A stretch of 5,191 nt of DNA from a virus (Duplodnaviria > Heunggongvirae > Uroviricota > Caudoviricetes), in IMG/VR virus record IMGVR_UViG_2565956611_000004, positions 1 through 5,191 of that record. One strand, written 5' to 3'. Below are positions 1 to 5,191 of the stretch, piece after piece. A program made the translations under genes and the position numbers. Positions within the stretch are counted from its first letter, which is position 1; each line of letters starts with the position of its first letter. The notes below the pieces were generated by a model. The model had not been told where the DNA came from. It was given only the letters and a program-made list of their open reading frames with translations, and made no database searches.

Positions 1-46
1 AGGTTGCTCCGGGCTATGAAATAGAAAAATGAATCCGTTGAAGCCT
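1..46. other. Host chromosomal flank (attB B-arm side) adjoining the prophage attL
   Basis: The sequence left of the core (aatccgttgaagcctg) matches what I recall of the E. coli attB flank, not the lambda attP P arm. No ORF is assigned here. Confidence 0.55.
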
Positions 47-61
47 GCTTTTTTATACTAA
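47..61. other. attL: attL common core / overlap region (GCTTTTTTATACTAA) of a lambda-type site-specific recombination site
   Basis: Exact 15-bp lambda att core, with the P' arm sequence to its right and non-phage sequence to its left. Confidence 0.85.
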
Positions 62-85
62 GTTGGCATTATAAAAAAGCATTGC

Positions 86-98
86 TTATCAATTTGTT
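86..98. promoter_or_regulatory. IHF binding site (H' of the att P' arm)
   Basis: TATCAATTTGTTG fits the IHF consensus WATCAANNNNTTR and sits at the expected position between the core and the arm-type Int sites. Confidence 0.6.
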
Positions 99-106
99 GC
101 AACGAA

Positions 107-137
107 CAGGTCACTATCAGTCAAAATAAAATCATTA
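107..137. promoter_or_regulatory. Int arm-type binding sites P'1-P'3 of the P' arm
   Basis: Tandem arm-type-like repeats caggtcactat / cagtcaaaat / aaaatcatta directly abut the int stop codon (TAA at 135-137 on the minus strand). Confidence 0.6.
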
Positions 138-1205
138 TTTGATTTCAATTTTGTCCCACTCCCTGCCTCTGTCATCACGATACTGTGATGCCATGGTGTC
201 CGACTTATGCCCGAGAAGATGTTGAGCAAACTTATCGCTTATCTGCTTCTCATAGAGTCTTGCAGACAAACTGCGCAACTCGTGAAAGGTAGGCGGATCC
301 CCTTCGAAGGAAAGACCTGATGCTTTTCGTGCGCGCATAAAATACCTTGATACTGTGCCGGATGAAAGCGGTTCGCGACGAGTAGATGCAATTATGGTTT
401 CTCCGCCAAGAATCTCTTTGCATTTATCAAGTGTTTCCTTCATTGATATTCCGAGAGCATCAACATGCAATGCTGTTGGGATGGCAATTTTTACGCCTGT
501 TTTGCTTTGCTCGACATAAAGATATCCATCTACGATATCAGACCACTTCATTTCGCATAAATCACCAACTCGTTGCCCGGTAACAACAGCCAGTTCCATT
601 GCAAGTCTGAGCCAACATGGTGATGATTCTGCTGCTTGATAAATTTTCAGGTATTCGTCAGCCGTAAGTCTTGATCTCCTTACCTCTGATTTTGCTGCGC
701 GAGTGGCAGCGACAGGGTTTGTTGTTATATGGCCTTCAGCTATTGCCTCTCGGAATGCATCGCTCAGTGTTGATCTGATTAACTTGGCTGACGCCGCCTT
801 GCCCTCGTCTATGTATCCATTGAGCATTGCCGCAATTTCTTTTGTGGTGATGTCTTCAAGTGGAGCATCAGGCAGACCCCTCCTTATTGCTTTAATTTTG
901 CTCATGTAATTTATGAGTGTCTTCTGCTTGATTCCTCTGCTGGCCAGGATTTTTTCGTAGCGATCAAGCCATGAATGTAACGTAACGGAATTATCACTGT
1001 TGATTCTCGCTGTCAGAGGCTTGTGTTTGTGTCCTGAAAATAACTCAATGTTGGCCTGTATGGCTTCAGTGATTGCGATTCGCCTGTCTCTGCCTAATCC
1101 AAACTCTTTACCCGTCCTTGGGTCCCTGTAGCAGTAATATCCATTGTTTCTTATATAAAGGTTAGGGGGTAAATCCCGGCGCTCATGACTTCGCCTTCTT
1201 CCCAT
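135..1205 (-). CDS. int: Lambda-type integrase (tyrosine recombinase), 356 aa
   Basis: The translation matches lambda Int as I recall it, with the catalytic residues in place (R212, K235, H308, R311, H333, Y342). It ends next to the att P' arm. Confidence 0.97.
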   Translation of the reverse strand: MGRRRSHERRDLPPNLYIRNNGYYCYRDPRTGKEFGLGRDRRIAITEAIQANIELFSGHKHKPLTARINSDNSVTLHSWLDRYEKILASRGIKQKTLINYMSKIKAIRRGLPDAPLEDITTKEIAAMLNGYIDEGKAASAKLIRSTLSDAFREAIAEGHITTNPVAATRAAKSEVRRSRLTADEYLKIYQAAESSPCWLRLAMELAVVTGQRVGDLCEMKWSDIVDGYLYVEQSKTGVKIAIPTALHVDALGISMKETLDKCKEILGGETIIASTRREPLSSGTVSRYFMRARKASGLSFEGDPPTFHELRSLSARLYEKQISDKFAQHLLGHKSDTMASQYRDDRGREWDKIEIK

Positions 1206-1401
1206 TTCTGATCCTCTTCAAAAGGCTACCTGTTACTGGTCGATTTAAGTCAACCTTTACCGCTGATTCGTGGAACAGATACTCTCTTCCATCCTTAACC
1301 GGAGGAGGGAATATCCTGCACTCGCGTACCCATCGACGAACTGTTTCAAGGCTTCTTGGGCGTCGCTGGCGTGCGTTCCACTCCTGAAGTGTCAAGTACA
1401 T
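1183..1401 (-). CDS. xis: Lambda-type excisionase, 72 aa
   Basis: The translation MYLTLQEWNARQRRPRSLETVRRWVRECRIF... matches lambda Xis as recalled. The 3' end overlaps the int start by 23 nt, as in lambda. Confidence 0.95.
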   Translation of the reverse strand: MYLTLQEWNARQRRPRSLETVRRWVRECRIFPPPVKDGREYLFHESAVKVDLNRPVTGSLLKRIRNGKKAKS

Positions 1402-1413
1402 CGCAAAGTCTCC

Positions 1414-1427
1414 GCAATTACACGCAA
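1414..1427 (-). promoter_or_regulatory. cII-binding direct repeat TTGC-N6-TTGC of the pI promoter (-35 region), just upstream of the xis start
   Basis: The minus strand reads TTGCGTGTAATTGC 13 nt upstream of the xis ATG. In lambda the pI promoter is cII-activated and its transcript begins inside xis. Confidence 0.6.
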
Positions 1428-1450
1428 GAAAAAACCGCCATCAGGCGGCT
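1426..1450 (-). terminator. Putative intrinsic terminator-like hairpin on the leftward transcript, just upstream of the pI cII site
   Basis: The minus strand reads GCCGCC-TGAT-GGCGG followed by TTTTTTCTT (a GC stem plus T-tract). I recall the same element at this position in lambda. Confidence 0.5.
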
Positions 1451-1514
1451 TGGTGTTCTTTCAGTTCTTCAATTCGAATATTGGTTACATTGTTTTCATA
1501 TATGAATAAATAAA

Positions 1515-1694
1515 TTAGCTTTTTCCGTTGCCTTCGCGATCTTTATTAATTTTGACAAACTCGTTTTTACCACGCTCTCCAAATGCGTCTTTAGAGTCGT
1601 TGTATCCGCAATCGCAGCACACATAATCACCAGACCATCCACGCATTGTTTTTTCTTTTGCAATATTTCCAGAACCGCATTTTGGACAAGACAT
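1515..1694 (-). CDS. Small zinc-ribbon protein (about 59 aa; CPKC-x17-CCDC)
   Basis: The ORF track entry 1515..1727 begins at a TTG. An internal ATG at 1694 has a GGAGGT Shine-Dalgarno 6 nt upstream, giving MSCPKCGSGN... Two CxxC pairs are spaced as in a zinc ribbon. Confidence 0.6.
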   Translation of the reverse strand: MSCPKCGSGNIAKEKTMRGWSGDYVCCDCGYNDSKDAFGERGKNEFVKINKDREGNGKS

Positions 1695-1790
1695 ATCACT
1701 ACCTCCAAAGCATGAGTGAGATGACAACGTAACATTGATTGGAGATTAACAATAGATTGCTGATGTAAAAGATATGTATAAGCTTCGCTT

Positions 1791-2672
1791 TCAAAGTGGA
1801 GGCTCTGGTAGCGGCATCCAGTGTGACGGCTCACATACCCCCTCAACACCATTCATGTAAAAGAATTGAAATAACCCTTTACCTTTGTGAAACCCTACCA
1901 TCTGCTCTTTAGTGTCTGAGCAATAAACCAAAACATCTTCTTCGTTTGGCATTCGATCACTACAGCTTATCCAACCATCCGGAGTTACCGGAGAGTTGCC
2001 AGCTAGTCTACGCAAAACAGCCTTAACAGCCTCAATACGGTCATCATCGCAACTTTCCAGCGTATCTATGCGATCGAGCATGATGATGGCGTTATCAATA
2101 TCAGGATTGCCGGTCCACTCATTACCGCGATTGGATTCGGCAGCCTGGTTGCCAGATGCTGGCTGATTGTCGGCTTGGCTATAGCTAACAGCACGGCAGG
2201 CATCCTCTACGTTCTTCACTGCATCTGCGCAGTAGTTATAGCGATTGCATTCCACTAACTTCTGCTTGAGATTTTCAATTGCTTGCGCGACATCAGCCTG
2301 TATTGGCGGAACGGCTGTTTGCTCTCGAACGTCATTAGTCGCTATCGGTTCTGCTGCCAACTGACTGGCATATTTGTTAATGGTAACGATAAGCTCTTGC
2401 TCGGCCTCATCCAGACAATCACCGATACCTCGCCTGTCACCGTCAAAATCATCGAAATCGGCACGAATCCTGGCAACCTCCCGGATTGCGGACAACACTT
2501 CACCAGGAATAAGCGGAGAGTTGCCCGATAGTACATTCTGCTCCAGCGATGCCAGAGCAATTCGTGCCAGTTCTTCCGCTTCTTCTGCTGGCAGTACAAC
2601 GTTGCTACCAGGTCCGTATGTTTCGCGCCACTGCTTGATTGTCAGTAGTCGCTCTTTGGTTATAGTGGTCAT
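1791..2672 (-). CDS. Ea22-like early-region protein with a DUF551-like C-terminal domain, 293 aa
   Basis: The C-terminus (...WISCSDRMPNEEDVLVY...EPSHWMPLPEPPL) resembles the DUF551 signature found at the ends of Ea22-like prophage proteins. Its start overlaps the upstream stop (ATGA). Confidence 0.8.
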   Translation of the reverse strand: MTTITKERLLTIKQWRETYGPGSNVVLPAEEAEELARIALASLEQNVLSGNSPLIPGEVLSAIREVARIRADFDDFDGDRRGIGDCLDEAEQELIVTINKYASQLAAEPIATNDVREQTAVPPIQADVAQAIENLKQKLVECNRYNYCADAVKNVEDACRAVSYSQADNQPASGNQAAESNRGNEWTGNPDIDNAIIMLDRIDTLESCDDDRIEAVKAVLRRLAGNSPVTPDGWISCSDRMPNEEDVLVYCSDTKEQMVGFHKGKGLFQFFYMNGVEGVCEPSHWMPLPEPPL

Positions 2673-2878
2673 TTGTTAACCCTCAAAACTTTATGCCCGG
2701 GCGCAAAAGCACGCGTTTTGTCTTTGCTTATTCGCCAGCCATCCTTGCGCGCCTCTTTTGCACAGCCAGCCCATGACGTACCTATATACTCACCGAAGTC
2801 TGGCACTGGATATACACCTTCCGTGCACTGACGGCAGTCACAATAGAGATGCATTGTGTAACTTGCGGCAATAGCCAT
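2669..2878 (-). CDS. Small Cys/His-rich hypothetical protein, 69 aa (possible metal-binding)
   Basis: Strong Shine-Dalgarno (AAGGAGG, 5-nt spacer) before the ATG at 2878. It contains H10, C13, C15, C18 and C39, and is translationally coupled to both neighbours. Confidence 0.65.
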   Translation of the reverse strand: MAIAASYTMHLYCDCRQCTEGVYPVPDFGEYIGTSWAGCAKEARKDGWRISKDKTRAFAPGHKVLRVNK

Positions 2879-2879
2879 A

Positions 2880-3344
2880 TCACCCTCCTTTACCCTGAAG
2901 CATGGCGTCGCTCCGCTCTATACCATCCAGCGCGATTCGCAGTGCCTGAATTGTGGTAGTGCTATCGTTTGGGGCTATTCCATATCGCTCGAATACAGCT
3001 AAATGGTTGCGCATAATCTCAGGCGTAAGCTCTTTGTAAGCATAAGCAAGAGGCTCTGATGCATTATCCGGCACAACCGACGCAGGCGCGGCAGCATAAA
3101 CAGGAATAACGTCCGCTTGCTCTTTATTGCTTTCATCCGTTAAAGCCCAGAATAATTTCCCGGCCGGATGTTTGAAAATATAAGCAACTGGTTCTGCACT
3201 ATCAGCTTCGCGCCGCTTCTGTAGCTCTGCTGCCATTGCTCTCACGACTTCAACTGGTGCCCTTGCGGCAAACTCTATGTTGGTGATCAGCTCATTAAGA
3301 TATTGCTCGCTGGGATACTGTTTCTTATTGGTAATAGTGGTCAT
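2880..3344 (-). CDS. Hypothetical protein, 154 aa
   Basis: Shine-Dalgarno GAAGGA upstream; its ATG overlaps the upstream stop (ATGA at 3341-3344). No motif recognised. Confidence 0.7.
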   Translation of the reverse strand: MTTITNKKQYPSEQYLNELITNIEFAARAPVEVVRAMAAELQKRREADSAEPVAYIFKHPAGKLFWALTDESNKEQADVIPVYAAAPASVVPDNASEPLAYAYKELTPEIMRNHLAVFERYGIAPNDSTTTIQALRIALDGIERSDAMLQGKGG

Positions 3345-3856
3345 GCCGCGTTTCCTTCTTTCTTATTAACAATTACACCGTCATATATTTCATTAAGGTG
3401 CCCTCTCAACTCCATGCGCCTTAATGCAGATAACATGTAATCGCATTCAACCTGCTTATTTCCAGTAAATGGCTTATCGTCAGGATTACCCCAACAGCAA
3501 TTACCCTTGGGCCACCCATGTACTTTCCGTACTCTTCCGTTAACAACGTGAAGTAATCCCCAGCCAGGTGGTAAATCCTCAATTGAAATAATTCCCGGCT
3601 CACTAATAAAGAATCGCCAGTCGCCCATTCCAAGAGACGGATTTTTACGAAAACGCTTTTTTCTATCTGCCAACAAGTCAGCACGAGAACACTTCGCCTC
3701 TATCAGGCATGATGCTGAATTTCTGAATCCCATAGCATCTGGCTGTTCTCCGGTACTGGTTACAGCTATAAAGCGGTCATGAAAACAAACCTTGAACCCG
3801 TTGCGCTTAAGGAACTTGTACGCAATCTGACAGAGTTCGCGGTGTGTTAACGCCAT
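3341..3856 (-). CDS. Putative PD-(D/E)xK superfamily nuclease (Hjc/VRR-NUC-like arrangement), 171 aa
   Basis: Start refined to the ATG at 3856, which has an AAGGAG Shine-Dalgarno with a 6-nt spacer. The track's 195-aa form begins at an upstream GTG inside the preceding gene. Motif reading: E7 ... GEQPD40AMGF ... CLIE53AK55, i.e. E / PD / ExK with nuclease-like spacing. Confidence 0.6.
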   Translation of the reverse strand: MALTHRELCQIAYKFLKRNGFKVCFHDRFIAVTSTGEQPDAMGFRNSASCLIEAKCSRADLLADRKKRFRKNPSLGMGDWRFFISEPGIISIEDLPPGWGLLHVVNGRVRKVHGWPKGNCCWGNPDDKPFTGNKQVECDYMLSALRRMELRGHLNEIYDGVIVNKKEGNAA

Positions 3857-3857
3857 A

Positions 3858-4046
3858 TCACTCTCCTTTAGTGCGCAAGTGGTTTTTCCAGCGGTTTTGC
3901 GCCGCGCTGGGCTTTTTGCAAAAACCACAATCCATCATCCCGTAATATTTCATCAACCCCATCCGTCGGTTGCTGAGTCTCACCCACTGCCAGACGCCAG
4001 GAGCGTTTCTACGAACTAACAGAATCTTTGCTTTACGGTTTTTCAT
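3858..4046 (-). CDS. Small basic protein, 62 aa (paralog A; MKNRKAK... N-terminus)
   Basis: Its ATG overlaps the stop of the upstream paralog (ATGA), and its own stop lies 1 nt before the nuclease-like gene's ATG. Lys/Arg-rich. Confidence 0.6.
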   Translation of the reverse strand: MKNRKAKILLVRRNAPGVWQWVRLSNRRMGLMKYYGMMDCGFCKKPSAAQNRWKNHLRTKGE

Positions 4047-4047
4047 C
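4027..4047. repeat. Direct repeat copy 1 (tttgctttacggtttttcatc), covering the start of the 62-aa ORF
   Basis: 20 of 21 nt identical to 4200-4220. Confidence 0.8.
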
Positions 4048-4219
4048 TTACAGCGTACCCTTTCTTCCGCCTGTTCTGTGACGCAGTAGGCTTACGCTTT
4101 GCGGCAAAAGCCACCTGACCAAATGGATGGAGTACCGCTATCTTATGGTTGCTAATAACCAGCTCCACCACACGCACAGGTCGCTGTAAAAAAAGTCGTT
4201 TTGCCTTACGGTTTTTCAT
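4043..4219 (-). CDS. Small basic protein, 58 aa (paralog B; MKNRKAKRLFLQRPVRVVELVISNHKIAVLHPFGQVAFAAKRKPTASQNRRKKGYAVR)
   Basis: Not in the supplied ORF track; found by manual translation. AGGAGAG Shine-Dalgarno about 8 nt upstream. It shares the N-terminal MKNRKAK and the C-terminal K(K/R)KP(S/T)A(A/S)QNR motif with the 62-aa ORF. Confidence 0.5.
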   Translation of the reverse strand: MKNRKAKRLFLQRPVRVVELVISNHKIAVLHPFGQVAFAAKRKPTASQNRRKKGYAVR

Positions 4220-4220
4220 C
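4200..4220. repeat. Direct repeat copy 2 (tttgccttacggtttttcatc), covering the start of the 58-aa ORF
   Basis: 20 of 21 nt identical to 4027-4047. Confidence 0.8.
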
Positions 4221-4391
4221 GCTTTGCTCTCCTGCGTCTCTTTGCTGCTCGTCGTGCCGCTGCAATACCGGTATGGCGGCGCTTTGGTGCCGGGATGATG
4301 TTGTCAGCCATCAGGACATGTGGCTTTGCAATTAGCGCAGAAGCCCAAAAACGAGTCGGGTACGGTAACAAGCCGATACATGCCACACGCA

Positions 4392-4880
4392 CTACTCACC
4401 TCCGTTGATGCGAATGCCTGTTGCAATGCTGTTTATGATGCTGTCAGTGCATGGGGTAGAAAGCTGGGCATCTCCAGCAATTTTCATGACATCAACATCT
4501 GCATATCGAATACCGAGGTGTATCAGACCGGCTATACCTGACTTAAGCCGAGCATTTTCCATAAACAGATCCTTTGCCCGCTGTTTTTCTGCCTCAAGCT
4601 CAACGCGCAACTTCCCTACCGTTAGCGCAATATCCTCGTTCTCCTGGTCGCGGGATTTGATGTATTGCTGGTTCCTTTCCCGTTCATCCAGTAGTGCCAG
4701 CACGGTTTCTGGTCCGGCCAGAAATTTGAAGGCGTTGAGCGCATCAATATCCACACCGTAATCTTTAAGTTCCTGTTCACTTAACAAATCATCATCAGCT
4801 GGCAACATTAACAGGCGTTCCATTGCTGGAATTGCACGTTCCGCCGCCTCACGCAGTGCCTGGTAATTAATTTCGCTCAC
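4392..4880 (-). CDS. Ea22-like protein, 162 aa (lambda Ea22 homolog with a divergent central region)
   Basis: GTG start with a strong Shine-Dalgarno (AAGGAGG, 6-nt spacer). N-terminus MSEINYQALREAAE..., the block LLDERERNQQYIKSRDQENEDIALTVGKLRVELE, and the C-terminal ...GIRINGGE resemble lambda Ea22 as I recall it. Confidence 0.85.
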   Translation of the reverse strand: MSEINYQALREAAERAIPAMERLLMLPADDDLLSEQELKDYGVDIDALNAFKFLAGPETVLALLDERERNQQYIKSRDQENEDIALTVGKLRVELEAEKQRAKDLFMENARLKSGIAGLIHLGIRYADVDVMKIAGDAQLSTPCTDSIINSIATGIRINGGE

Positions 4881-5191
4881 TGGTTGCCTCCTTTGCGAAG
4901 CTGGGCAGCAAAGTCAACTAACCACTCAGTCATTTCAACCTTCCCTACCAGATCTGAACCAGGGTGCATACAGCAATCACTCTGCGCCGCTTTGAAATCC
5001 TTATACTCATATTCTTGGGCCACCAGATTTTTTGCAGCTTCTATAGCAGCATCCACGCCCTGCGCCCGCACTTCAGCCAGGAAAGCATCGGTGGCTGGGG
5101 TTTCAGTAACATCATCTTCCCATTCGCTAAACTCCTCACGACAAAAGTCATTAAATTCCTTCTCAGATTGCTTAAGCGAGGTATTTTCAGC
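4877..5191 (-). CDS. Hypothetical protein, 5'-truncated by the window edge (at least 105 codons in the window)
   Basis: The minus-strand frame is open from the window edge to the TGA at 4877-4879, which overlaps the GTG start of the Ea22-like gene (GTGA). The track's 64-aa ORF is this frame cut at an internal GTG. Confidence 0.6.
   Translation of the reverse strand, partial: AENTSLKQSEKEFNDFCREEFSEWEDDVTETPATDAFLAEVRAQGVDAAIEAAKNLVAQEYEYKDFKAAQSDCCMHPGSDLVGKVEMTEWLVDFAAQLRKGGNQ

Follow-up and report, generated by a model that had tools for sequence, protein, structure and literature searches.

Sequence comparison places a lambda-type integration module beside a patchwork ea region in an Escherichia coli prophage

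Introduction

How does DNA that follows bacteriophage lambda almost base for base come to stand beside genes that lambda lacks? The question is raised by the window analysed here, a stretch of 5,191 nucleotides (IMG/VR virus record IMGVR_UViG_2565956611_000004) in which lambda-type int and xis genes give way abruptly to accessory genes of another kind. A first-pass annotation had proposed a bounded replacement within a lambda backbone, in which the ea22-ea8.5 segment was exchanged for a different gene set and everything between about 1491 and 4391 was horizontally acquired. The exo-xis region concerned has been called 'highly mosaic', with a variable downstream gene set (PMC8614690). Variants of its Ea22 protein share a short N-terminal segment and a coiled coil but carry unrelated C-terminal domains, forming a block mosaic, and the Ea22 relatives of lambda and Stx phages are pro-lysogenic and tetrameric (PMC7093339, PMC10834534). 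The sequence identifies the window as the attL end of a prophage that sits at the lambda attachment site of E. coli. We consider it very probable that a lambda-type integration module here abuts a patchwork ea (exo-xis) region of P22/HK620/HK629 type, shuffled by recombination.

Results

A lambda-type module with a sharp right-hand edge

Window positions 47–1488 match lambda NC_001416 (27724–29165) over 1442 nucleotides with 9 mismatches and no gaps (99.4%, blastn), which bears out the earlier statement that the sequence follows lambda from the host junction to about 1490. The block comprises the att core, int, xis, the pI cII box, the terminator hairpin and the last 15 codons of orf55 (Table 1). 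Its first base corresponds to lambda 27724, annotated as a misc_recomb site in the lambda record. Bases 1–46 found no counterpart in the comparison with lambda, and a prophage occupies this same ybhC site in four complete genomes, those of the lysogens TUM1880, P393-F10, CUVET21 and EC332. The 15-bp core, the ybhC flank, and Int and Xis proteins with two and one amino acid changes, respectively, identify a lambda-type site-specific integration module; attR lies outside the window. From 1489 onward, similarity to lambda in the alignment of the window falls to background and eag, the zinc-ribbon gene into which the sequence had been said to diverge, comes next. The stretch quoted by the first-pass annotation is the minus strand of 1462–1488, and the small lambda gene that it described as truncated, with its stop codon in the hairpin loop, is orf55 (lambdap35, lambda 29118–29285). 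The orf55 stop lies at 1441–1443, and no in-frame start for the remnant was found upstream in the window, which bears out the truncation.

No counterpart of 1489–4394 was found in the whole 48.5-kb lambda genome, either by blastn with a word size of 7 or by tblastn of all cargo proteins. Lambda-like DNA beyond 1488 is limited to three islands within the Ea22 homologue, and the right-hand limit of 4420 given earlier fits the edge of the first of them. The three lambda matches reported by BLAST are all highly significant (E 0 to 3e-9). The alignment to lambda that had been proposed as a check finds the middle region absent from lambda, and int and xis lambda-like at the nucleotide level.

The Ea22 homologue belongs to the Ead/Ea22 family (PF13935, 114.5 bits against a cut-off of 27). 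It had been described as matching lambda Ea22 at both ends but not in the middle. The ends do match, with 14 of 16 residues shared over positions 1–16 and a similar stretch of about eight residues at the C-terminus (GIRINGGE in the window, GIRIKGE in lambda), but the strongest conservation lies in the middle, in the coiled coil (residues 55–101, 37/47). Alignments found no similarity to lambda Ea22 in residues 17–54 or in the C-terminal domain (residues 102–154); this domain is not of the lambda type solved by nuclear magnetic resonance, and the protein had no sequence match in the PDB.

A patchwork with several closest relatives

To the right of the joint the accessory region consists of nine tightly packed minus-strand genes and the 3' part of a tenth. 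By sequence comparison this cargo is not one acquired unit: it is pieced together from at least five segments that differ in their closest relatives, and many of the breakpoints are intragenic. We compared the window with 173 loci, of which 13 are annotated records and the other 160 are IMG/VR loci found by searching with the Ea22 and nuclease-like proteins. Block edges recur at 1429 (42 loci), 1488 (36 loci), 1948, 2001, 2537, 2672, 3328 (102 loci) and 3875, and further to the right at 4396, 4584, 4706, 4843, 4904, 5052 and 5104. Thirteen of 43 recurrent breakpoint clusters fall no more than 20 nucleotides from a gene boundary, where 12.9% would be expected (binomial p = 0.002 on these selected loci), and most of the remaining clusters fall at domain edges inside the DUF551, 154-residue and Ea22 genes. 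The 293-residue DUF551 gene is itself a hybrid, its left part resembling EC332 up to 2001 and its right part resembling P1-like plasmids from 1948, and TUM1880 carries an in-frame chimera which combines the N-terminus of the DUF551 gene, the body of the 154-residue gene and a DUF551 C-terminus.

Lambda, HK629, HK97, Huey, 720R6 and four lysogens differ in the gene sets that occupy, always in one orientation, the slot between xis and the recombination genes, and individual blocks occur at high identity in otherwise different phages. The comparison with other lambdoid prophages suggested at the outset located segments in EC332, HK629, TUM1880, an Stx2c phage and P1-like plasmids. With its sharp boundary and alternative gene sets, the locus is indeed the classic lambdoid modular exchange that it had been taken for, of a kind already described for this region (PMC8614690, PMC10834534, PMC7093339). 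The view of 1491–4391 as horizontally acquired cargo survives in part: 1489–4394 is non-lambda throughout, but it is a patchwork and, as set out below, has no polarity relative to lambda. Nor does base composition mark the cargo: its GC content is 0.47 and that of the lambda block 0.45, with a lower value (0.385) confined to the eag segment, so that composition gives no argument for foreignness.

The near-identity of a 2.8-kb block to P1-like phage-plasmids is mildly unexpected, an earlier survey having found the lambda group and the P1-P2-Mu group to share no recent mosaics (PMC3945230). In one such plasmid (L004, NZ_LR890200, 6001–8789) and also in L008, the block that corresponds to window 1948–4909 is 99.2–99.7% identical. 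There it is flanked by hot on one side and by the pmgS-side genes on the other, with humD and phd-doc lying across hot from it, and partial matches to it occur in 768 plasmid records. Phage P7 has related genes (AF503408 88997–90299, upf88.3–89.5), which already reveal a link to the P1 group.

The genes to the right of the window speak against a bounded ea22-ea8.5 replacement in a lambda backbone. In contigs identical to the window the EaE-like gene is followed by DUF2737, Abc2 and then Erf, and lambda-like DNA is found there only as small islands near kil and cIII. Given these P22/HK620-type genes, the lambda-identical part is confined to the 1.44-kb att-int-xis-pI-hairpin module, and the remainder of the leftward operon is, by its sequence, of P22/HK620/HK97 type. 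Prophages with an identical or near-identical ea region (L176, L179, L181) differ in the recombination module, from window-equivalent 4911 onward. The alternatives are Erf with Abc2, RecT with a Gp157-like gene, or a Sak4-like AAA protein, and L179 departs from the window exactly at the recurrent 4904–4916 breakpoint.

Short conserved sequences coincide with joints

Three deletions or insertions among the relatives are exact to the base. CUVET21 lacks 2893–3870, between two 19-nucleotide copies of the motif D5 (TAAAGGAGRGTGATATGGC, comprising a stop codon, a Shine–Dalgarno (SD) sequence and an ATG); P1-like plasmids lack 4048–4220, between 21-nucleotide copies of D3; and the loci L097 and L031 lack 2673–3327, between 17-nucleotide copies of D6, at which the TUM1880 chimera joins as well. 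Across the 173 loci, these motifs and the 19-nucleotide tail of the Ea22 gene occur 83–154 times each, with 6–19 distinct flanks per side. We counted 139 copies of D5, spread over 121 loci and preceded by 17 and followed by 8 different contexts; the Ea22 tail has 154 copies, spread over 151 loci and preceded by 13 and followed by 19 contexts. The two most frequent flanks occur in all four possible pairings at D5, at D6 and at the Ea22 tail. Such reassorted flanks are the pattern expected if homologous recombination repeatedly resolves inside short segments.

The tail DNA of Ea22 holds the SD sequence for the gene that follows, which starts with a GTG overlapping the stop codon of Ea22. Besides the block shared with P1-like plasmids, this coincidence of the tail with a conserved DNA joint is the only mildly unexpected point. 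The '...GE' motif at the Ea22 C-terminus has been described as 'of unknown significance' (PMC7093339), and from the sequence it may be kept as a DNA joint or translation signal rather than as a protein motif. The 62- and 58-residue tandem paralogues both begin MKNRKAK, and their copy number differs among relatives via the 21-nucleotide start repeat.

The strongest alternative is of the kind associated with Hendrix, namely that joints arise mainly by illegitimate recombination at random positions, followed by selection, and that the motifs are translational signals with no role in exchange. We regard it as a serious possibility, albeit one that we would not expect to hold by itself. Several observations in its favour weigh against shuffling by homologous exchange. 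To the right of 1488/1489, homology between the orf55-type and eag-type alleles is undetectable, and the joint looks, on its sequence, like illegitimate recombination rather than homologous exchange. The in-frame join of the TUM1880 chimera, with only 5 nucleotides of microhomology (TCTGC), looks to be of the same kind. Thirty of the 43 recurrent breakpoint clusters lie more than 20 nucleotides from a gene boundary, and about 70% of mosaics in a published survey were without traces of flanking homology (PMC3945230). The short motifs may also be conserved for translation (SD and start) or for N-terminal peptides, and be joints only incidentally. Finally, the loci were chosen for carrying a nuclease-like or Ea22 gene and include many close relatives, so that locus counts describe positions and not numbers of events. 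Random joining is, however, hard to square with three indels that coincide to the base with repeats of 17–21 nucleotides, with the many reassorted flank combinations at the motifs, or with intragenic edges at the conserved cores 1948–2001 and 4584–4703, which could themselves act as homology. The two models are complementary: illegitimate events probably make new joints, which homologous exchange would then spread. Phage Rad52-like recombinases are known to drive mosaics on short, diverged homology and to exchange small fragments more than modules (PMC3945230).

Two common alleles meet at the left joint

The edge at 1488 is also present in the prophages TUM1880, P393-F10, CUVET21 and 720R6. 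It is common to several prophages with lambda-type orf55, and HK629, Huey and EC332 run on into eag like the window. About 2600 of 5426 complete E. coli genomes have the shared hairpin segment (1425–1488), with the window-type hairpin-to-eag joint in 327 of the 5426 and the lambda-type hairpin-to-orf55 joint in 2142. Since both joint types are common in E. coli, 1488/1489 is a widespread boundary of two alleles and not a private event, and for the same reason the term 'acquired' carries no polarity relative to lambda. The sole pointer to polarity at this joint is the orf55 remnant, which hints that the lambda-type state is older.

The reverse order, with a P22/HK620-type ea region beside int-xis being the older state and the orf55-ea8.5 segment of lambda the replacement, strikes us as improbable. 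Ea8.5 has been called 'exclusive to lambda', with ea8.5 and orf55 described as two genes found in that phage alone (PMC8614690), and lambdoid, P22-like, Stx and P1-like elements commonly carry ea genes of the kinds seen in the window. Yet a 3' remnant of 15 codons and a stop with no start most simply means that orf55 was first at the joint, and among E. coli genomes the hairpin-to-orf55 joint outnumbers the other by 6.5 to 1.

Huey (L009 3387–3816) and the loci L006, L007 and L010 have an insert of about 430 nucleotides that separates the pI cII box from the terminator hairpin (window joint 1425–1432). The insert encodes a 114-residue gene and, in Huey, the sole case inspected at the sequence level, carries its own hairpin. 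Absent from the window, it looks like a moron-type insertion.

A mobile element or an assembly error is very unlikely

It is very unlikely that a dedicated mobile element, such as a transposon, an integron-like cassette or a defence island with a recombinase, brought in the cargo. The only points in its favour are the sharp boundary at 1488/1489 and the occurrence of the same cassette in unrelated replicons, namely lambdoid prophages and P1-like plasmids. Against it, the window open reading frames encode neither a transposase nor a further recombinase, no terminal inverted repeats or target duplications flank 1489–4420, the PADLOC defence-system models gave 0 matches among the 10 window proteins, and the segment boundaries are inconstant across relatives.

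All 5191 nucleotides are found at 100% identity in GCA_013084085.1, GCA_053571725.1 and GCA_000488575.1, and at 99.98% in two further assemblies. The contigs with the window span 91–376 kb and all place it beside ybhC, and the exact 293-residue DUF551 protein is encoded on at least 24 contigs. An assembly chimera, in which prophages were collapsed across short shared repeats, is accordingly the least credible explanation: no complete E. coli genome has at least 80% of the window in one place, or the 1830–2130 joint, but the identity of the full length in three independent assemblies with the same chromosomal flank effectively refutes it.

The accessory genes and a predicted nuclease

The accessory proteins all match PHROG families without known function. 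NCBIfam and Rfam scans of the window gave nothing useful, and PDB sequence searches with four cargo proteins gave no significant match. The zinc ribbon, annotated as 'Eag protein' in other lysogens, has cysteines at 3, 6, 26/27 and 29. It falls below the cut-off for the Lar restriction-alleviation family PF14354 (23.2 bits against 28.6; flagged 'weak' in precomputed matches), and further zinc-ribbon profile matches are likewise sub-threshold; an anti-restriction role is possible from these similarities. The DUF551 domain (PF04448, 67.6 bits against a cut-off of 22) spans residues 233–292 of its protein, and the body of the 154-residue gene is found fused to DUF551 modules in relatives. The very basic 58-residue protein ends in an Arg/Lys-rich tail. 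Taken by analogy, the cargo is most likely non-essential and would tune the lysis–lysogeny decision and host takeover, a role known within the set for Ea22 relatives only.

The 171-residue protein is predicted to have the restriction-endonuclease-like core fold. Residues D40, E53 and K55 are invariant in 32 homologues and align with the motif of 3dnx, and 14 of the 32 give weak matches to Hjc. Pfam, NCBIfam and PADLOC provided no significant model for it, and the MmcB-like family PF06319 matched neither the protein nor any of the 32 homologues, only the 3dnx fragment itself. We therefore describe it as a predicted PD-(D/E)xK nuclease that would act like MmcB/Hjc-type enzymes and do not claim it as a family member; compared with MmcB-like and Hjc-like nucleases it has a C-terminal extension of about 50 residues. 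In other proteins the domain is joined to an Ea22 N-terminus, to DUF551 or to an 'ITKERLL' module.

The family phrog_9263 (230 residues) covers both the 62- and the 171-residue genes, and the PGAP annotation pipeline labels this locus 'frameshifted' in relatives. No real fusion of the two genes was found, the longer database proteins inspected having unrelated N-termini or alternative start calls. PGAP likewise calls the 154- and 171-residue genes 'partial' or 'frameshifted' pseudogenes in L002, L004, L006 and L008 (window-equivalent 2892–3856), even at 99.7% identity to the intact open reading frames of the window in P1-like plasmids. These labels are probably an artefact of chimeric reference proteins in a shuffled region.

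Probable operon organisation and details of the lambda block

Every sizeable open reading frame of interest is on the minus strand. From the EaE-like gene through the DUF551 gene, neighbours overlap by 4 or 1 nucleotides or lie 1 nucleotide apart, and an SD sequence precedes each start codon visible in the window. Longer gaps occur only between DUF551 and eag (96 nucleotides) and between eag and xis (113 nucleotides). From this arrangement we infer that the accessory genes form one leftward, translationally coupled operon ending at the hairpin 1432–1451. A promoter scan of the window found promoter-like sites not to be enriched, and indeed fewer than in shuffled sequence, on which ground independent cargo promoters were dropped. 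We also considered and rejected a moron, with its own promoter and terminator: the genes are coupled and their only terminator is the shared hairpin.

The site in HK629 equivalent to the cII box is annotated as a lambda cII binding site, and HK97 carries the annotation 'putative terminator' at the site of the hairpin. Of the nine mismatches to lambda, six lie close together in xis (window 1227–1360), four of them within 1306–1327, with G59S as the sole amino acid change. Such clustering suggests gene conversion of a short stretch, with an HK022-type xis as the donor.

Table 1. Features of the window and closest relatives of its segments. Positions are those of the window; aa, amino acids.
Feature	Position	Strand	Remarks
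Host chromosome flank, ybhC side of attB-lambda	1–46	none	equals chromosome beside ybhC in TUM1880, P393-F10, CUVET21, EC332
att core of attL, 15 bp, GCTTTTTTATACTAA	47–61	none	lambda identity begins at 47
int, lambda integrase, 356 aa	135–1205	-	H164P and I248V vs lambda
xis, excisionase, 72 aa	1183–1401	-	G59S vs lambda
cII box of pI promoter, TTGC-N6-TTGC	1414–1427	-	minus strand reads TTGCGTGTAATTGC
Terminator-like hairpin and T-run	1432–1451	-	terminator scan; within conserved joint segment 1425–1488
Non-coding remnant of lambda orf55, VTNIRIEELKEHQAA*	1441–1488	-	last 15 codons and stop
Left breakpoint	1488/1489	none	final lambda-identical base / first non-lambda base
eag-type zinc-ribbon gene, 59 aa, CxxC...CxxC	1515–1694	-	phrog_2945 match; common to HK629, Huey, EC332
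Hybrid 293-aa gene, C-terminal DUF551 domain, EaA-like	1791–2672	-	PF04448
Conserved DUF551 core, intragenic crossover zone, 54 nucleotides	1948–2001	none	block edges at 1948 (107 loci), 2001 (100 loci)
Motif D6 copy 1, ATGACCACTATWACCAA	2656–2672	-	MTTIT start of DUF551 gene
69-aa Cys/His-rich gene	2669–2878	-	phrog_926
Motif D5 copy 1, TAAAGGAGGGTGATATGGC	2874–2892	-	stop/SD/ATG of 69-aa gene
154-aa gene	2880–3344	-	phrog_6847
Motif D6 copy 2	3328–3344	-	MTTIT start of 154-aa gene
171-aa predicted PD-(D/E)xK nuclease-fold protein gene	3341–3856	-	
Motif D5 copy 2	3852–3870	-	start of 171-aa gene
Small basic protein gene, 62 aa	3858–4046	-	phrog_1380
Motif D3 copy 1	4027–4047	-	first codons MKNRKAK of 62-aa gene
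Paralogue of 62-aa gene, 58 aa	4043–4219	-	phrog_1380; missing from P1-like plasmids
Motif D3 copy 2	4200–4220	-	start of 58-aa paralogue
Very basic 58-aa protein gene	4216–4392	-	phrog_13831; GTG start overlaps Ea22 stop codon
Ead/Ea22-family gene, 162 aa, non-lambda C-terminal domain	4392–4880	-	PF13935
Ea22 tail joint, GGCATTCGCATCAAMGGAG, first right-hand island	4395–4418	-	92% of 25 nucleotides; holds SD of next gene
Lambda-like island, Ea22 coiled-coil core	4584–4703	-	90%
Lambda-like island, Ea22 N-terminus and start region	4831–4881	-	84%
EaE-like gene, 3' part, runs off window	4877–5191	-	phrog_368 C-terminal match; 172 aa in full contigs; non-lambda
Best relative: EC332 prophage	1–2001		99.95%
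Best relative: HK629	47–1823		99.3%, eag included
Best relative: ~95-kb P1-like phage-plasmids	1948–4047		99.7%
Best relative: TUM1880 prophage	2892–4420		94%
Best relative: ~95-kb P1-like phage-plasmids	4200–4909		99.2%
Best relative: Stx2c phage	4582–5104		96.6%
Best relative: HK629	5052–5191		95.7%

Discussion

We propose that the arrangement in the window came about as lambdoid prophages sharing a host recombined repeatedly with one another, with infecting phages and with P1-like phage-plasmids. A junction, once formed, could have its segments re-dealt by homologous recombination across short conserved sequences, for which the candidates are the 64-nucleotide hairpin segment, the stop/SD/start motifs of 17–21 nucleotides, the 19-nucleotide Ea22 tail, the 54-nucleotide DUF551 core and the coiled-coil core of Ea22. 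The enzymes may be phage Rad52-like recombinases (Erf or RecT, encoded nearby) or RecA. The accessory genes would be read as the distal end of a leftward early (pL-type) operon, with transcription presumably stopping at the hairpin 1432–1451 unless antiterminated.

A more far-reaching claim can be built on these observations, which we offer as a conjecture and would expect to fail in one part or another. It holds that stop/SD/start motifs of the TAAAGGAGRGTGATATGGC type and the 19-nucleotide Ea22 tail are recombination linkers which re-deal genes and domains between lambdoid prophages and P1-like phage-plasmids, that the Ea22 '+GE' is kept as a DNA joint and as the ribosome-binding site of the next gene and not for protein function, and that the shuttled PD-(D/E)xK nuclease has a host-takeover or anti-defence role in phages of both kinds. 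The older idea of a 'linker' or 'boundary sequence' is said to come from Susskind and Botstein and, for HK620, from Clark et al. 2001.

The locus is an ordinary and already known case of lambdoid module shuffling rather than a novel type of element. That the early-left accessory region of lambdoid phages is mosaic, as is Ea22, is textbook knowledge, lately re-described, and carries little weight as a discovery. The window does provide a clean worked example with base-exact joints, in which the exchange units are often sub-genic and the joints fall at short stop/SD/start motifs and at domain cores. A single accessory cassette is in circulation among lambdoid prophages and P1-like phage-plasmids alike, the prediction of a PD-(D/E)xK nuclease offers a first functional lead for a widespread dark-matter gene, and the shuffling would explain the 'frameshifted' and 'partial' labels that pipelines attach to intact genes of the region.

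The closest known systems resemble the window in different respects. As in the exo-xis region of lambda and Stx phages, the variable small genes lie between ea22 and xis, in what would be a leftward early operon that fills the slot between xis and the recombination genes, and Ea22 combines a conserved N-terminus and coiled coil with an unrelated C-terminal domain and a ...GE tail. In contrast to that region, the conserved orf60a-orf63-orf61-orf73 block is absent to the right of Ea22, its place being taken by EaE-like, DUF2737, Abc2 and Erf genes, and the Ea22 C-terminal domain differs from that of lambda, with a tail that reads N-G-G-E and not (K/R)-G-E. The ea regions of HK629, HK620 and P22 share both the gene types and their order (eag, eaA/DUF551, ead/ea22, eaE), and 720R6, a Lederbergvirus, similarly combines lambda int-xis with DUF551, Ea22 and EaE genes. 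Window 2002–4870 is, however, missing from HK629 and is best matched by P1-like phage-plasmids and other prophages. The presence of a 2.8-kb block at 99.7% in P1-like phage-plasmids is unlike the mosaics surveyed by De Paepe et al. 2014 (PMC3945230), but in other respects the window fits the relaxed homologous recombination model of those authors, with high-identity blocks of a few hundred base pairs that are often sub-genic, short conserved sequences at the joints, and Rad52-like Erf or RecT genes encoded nearby.

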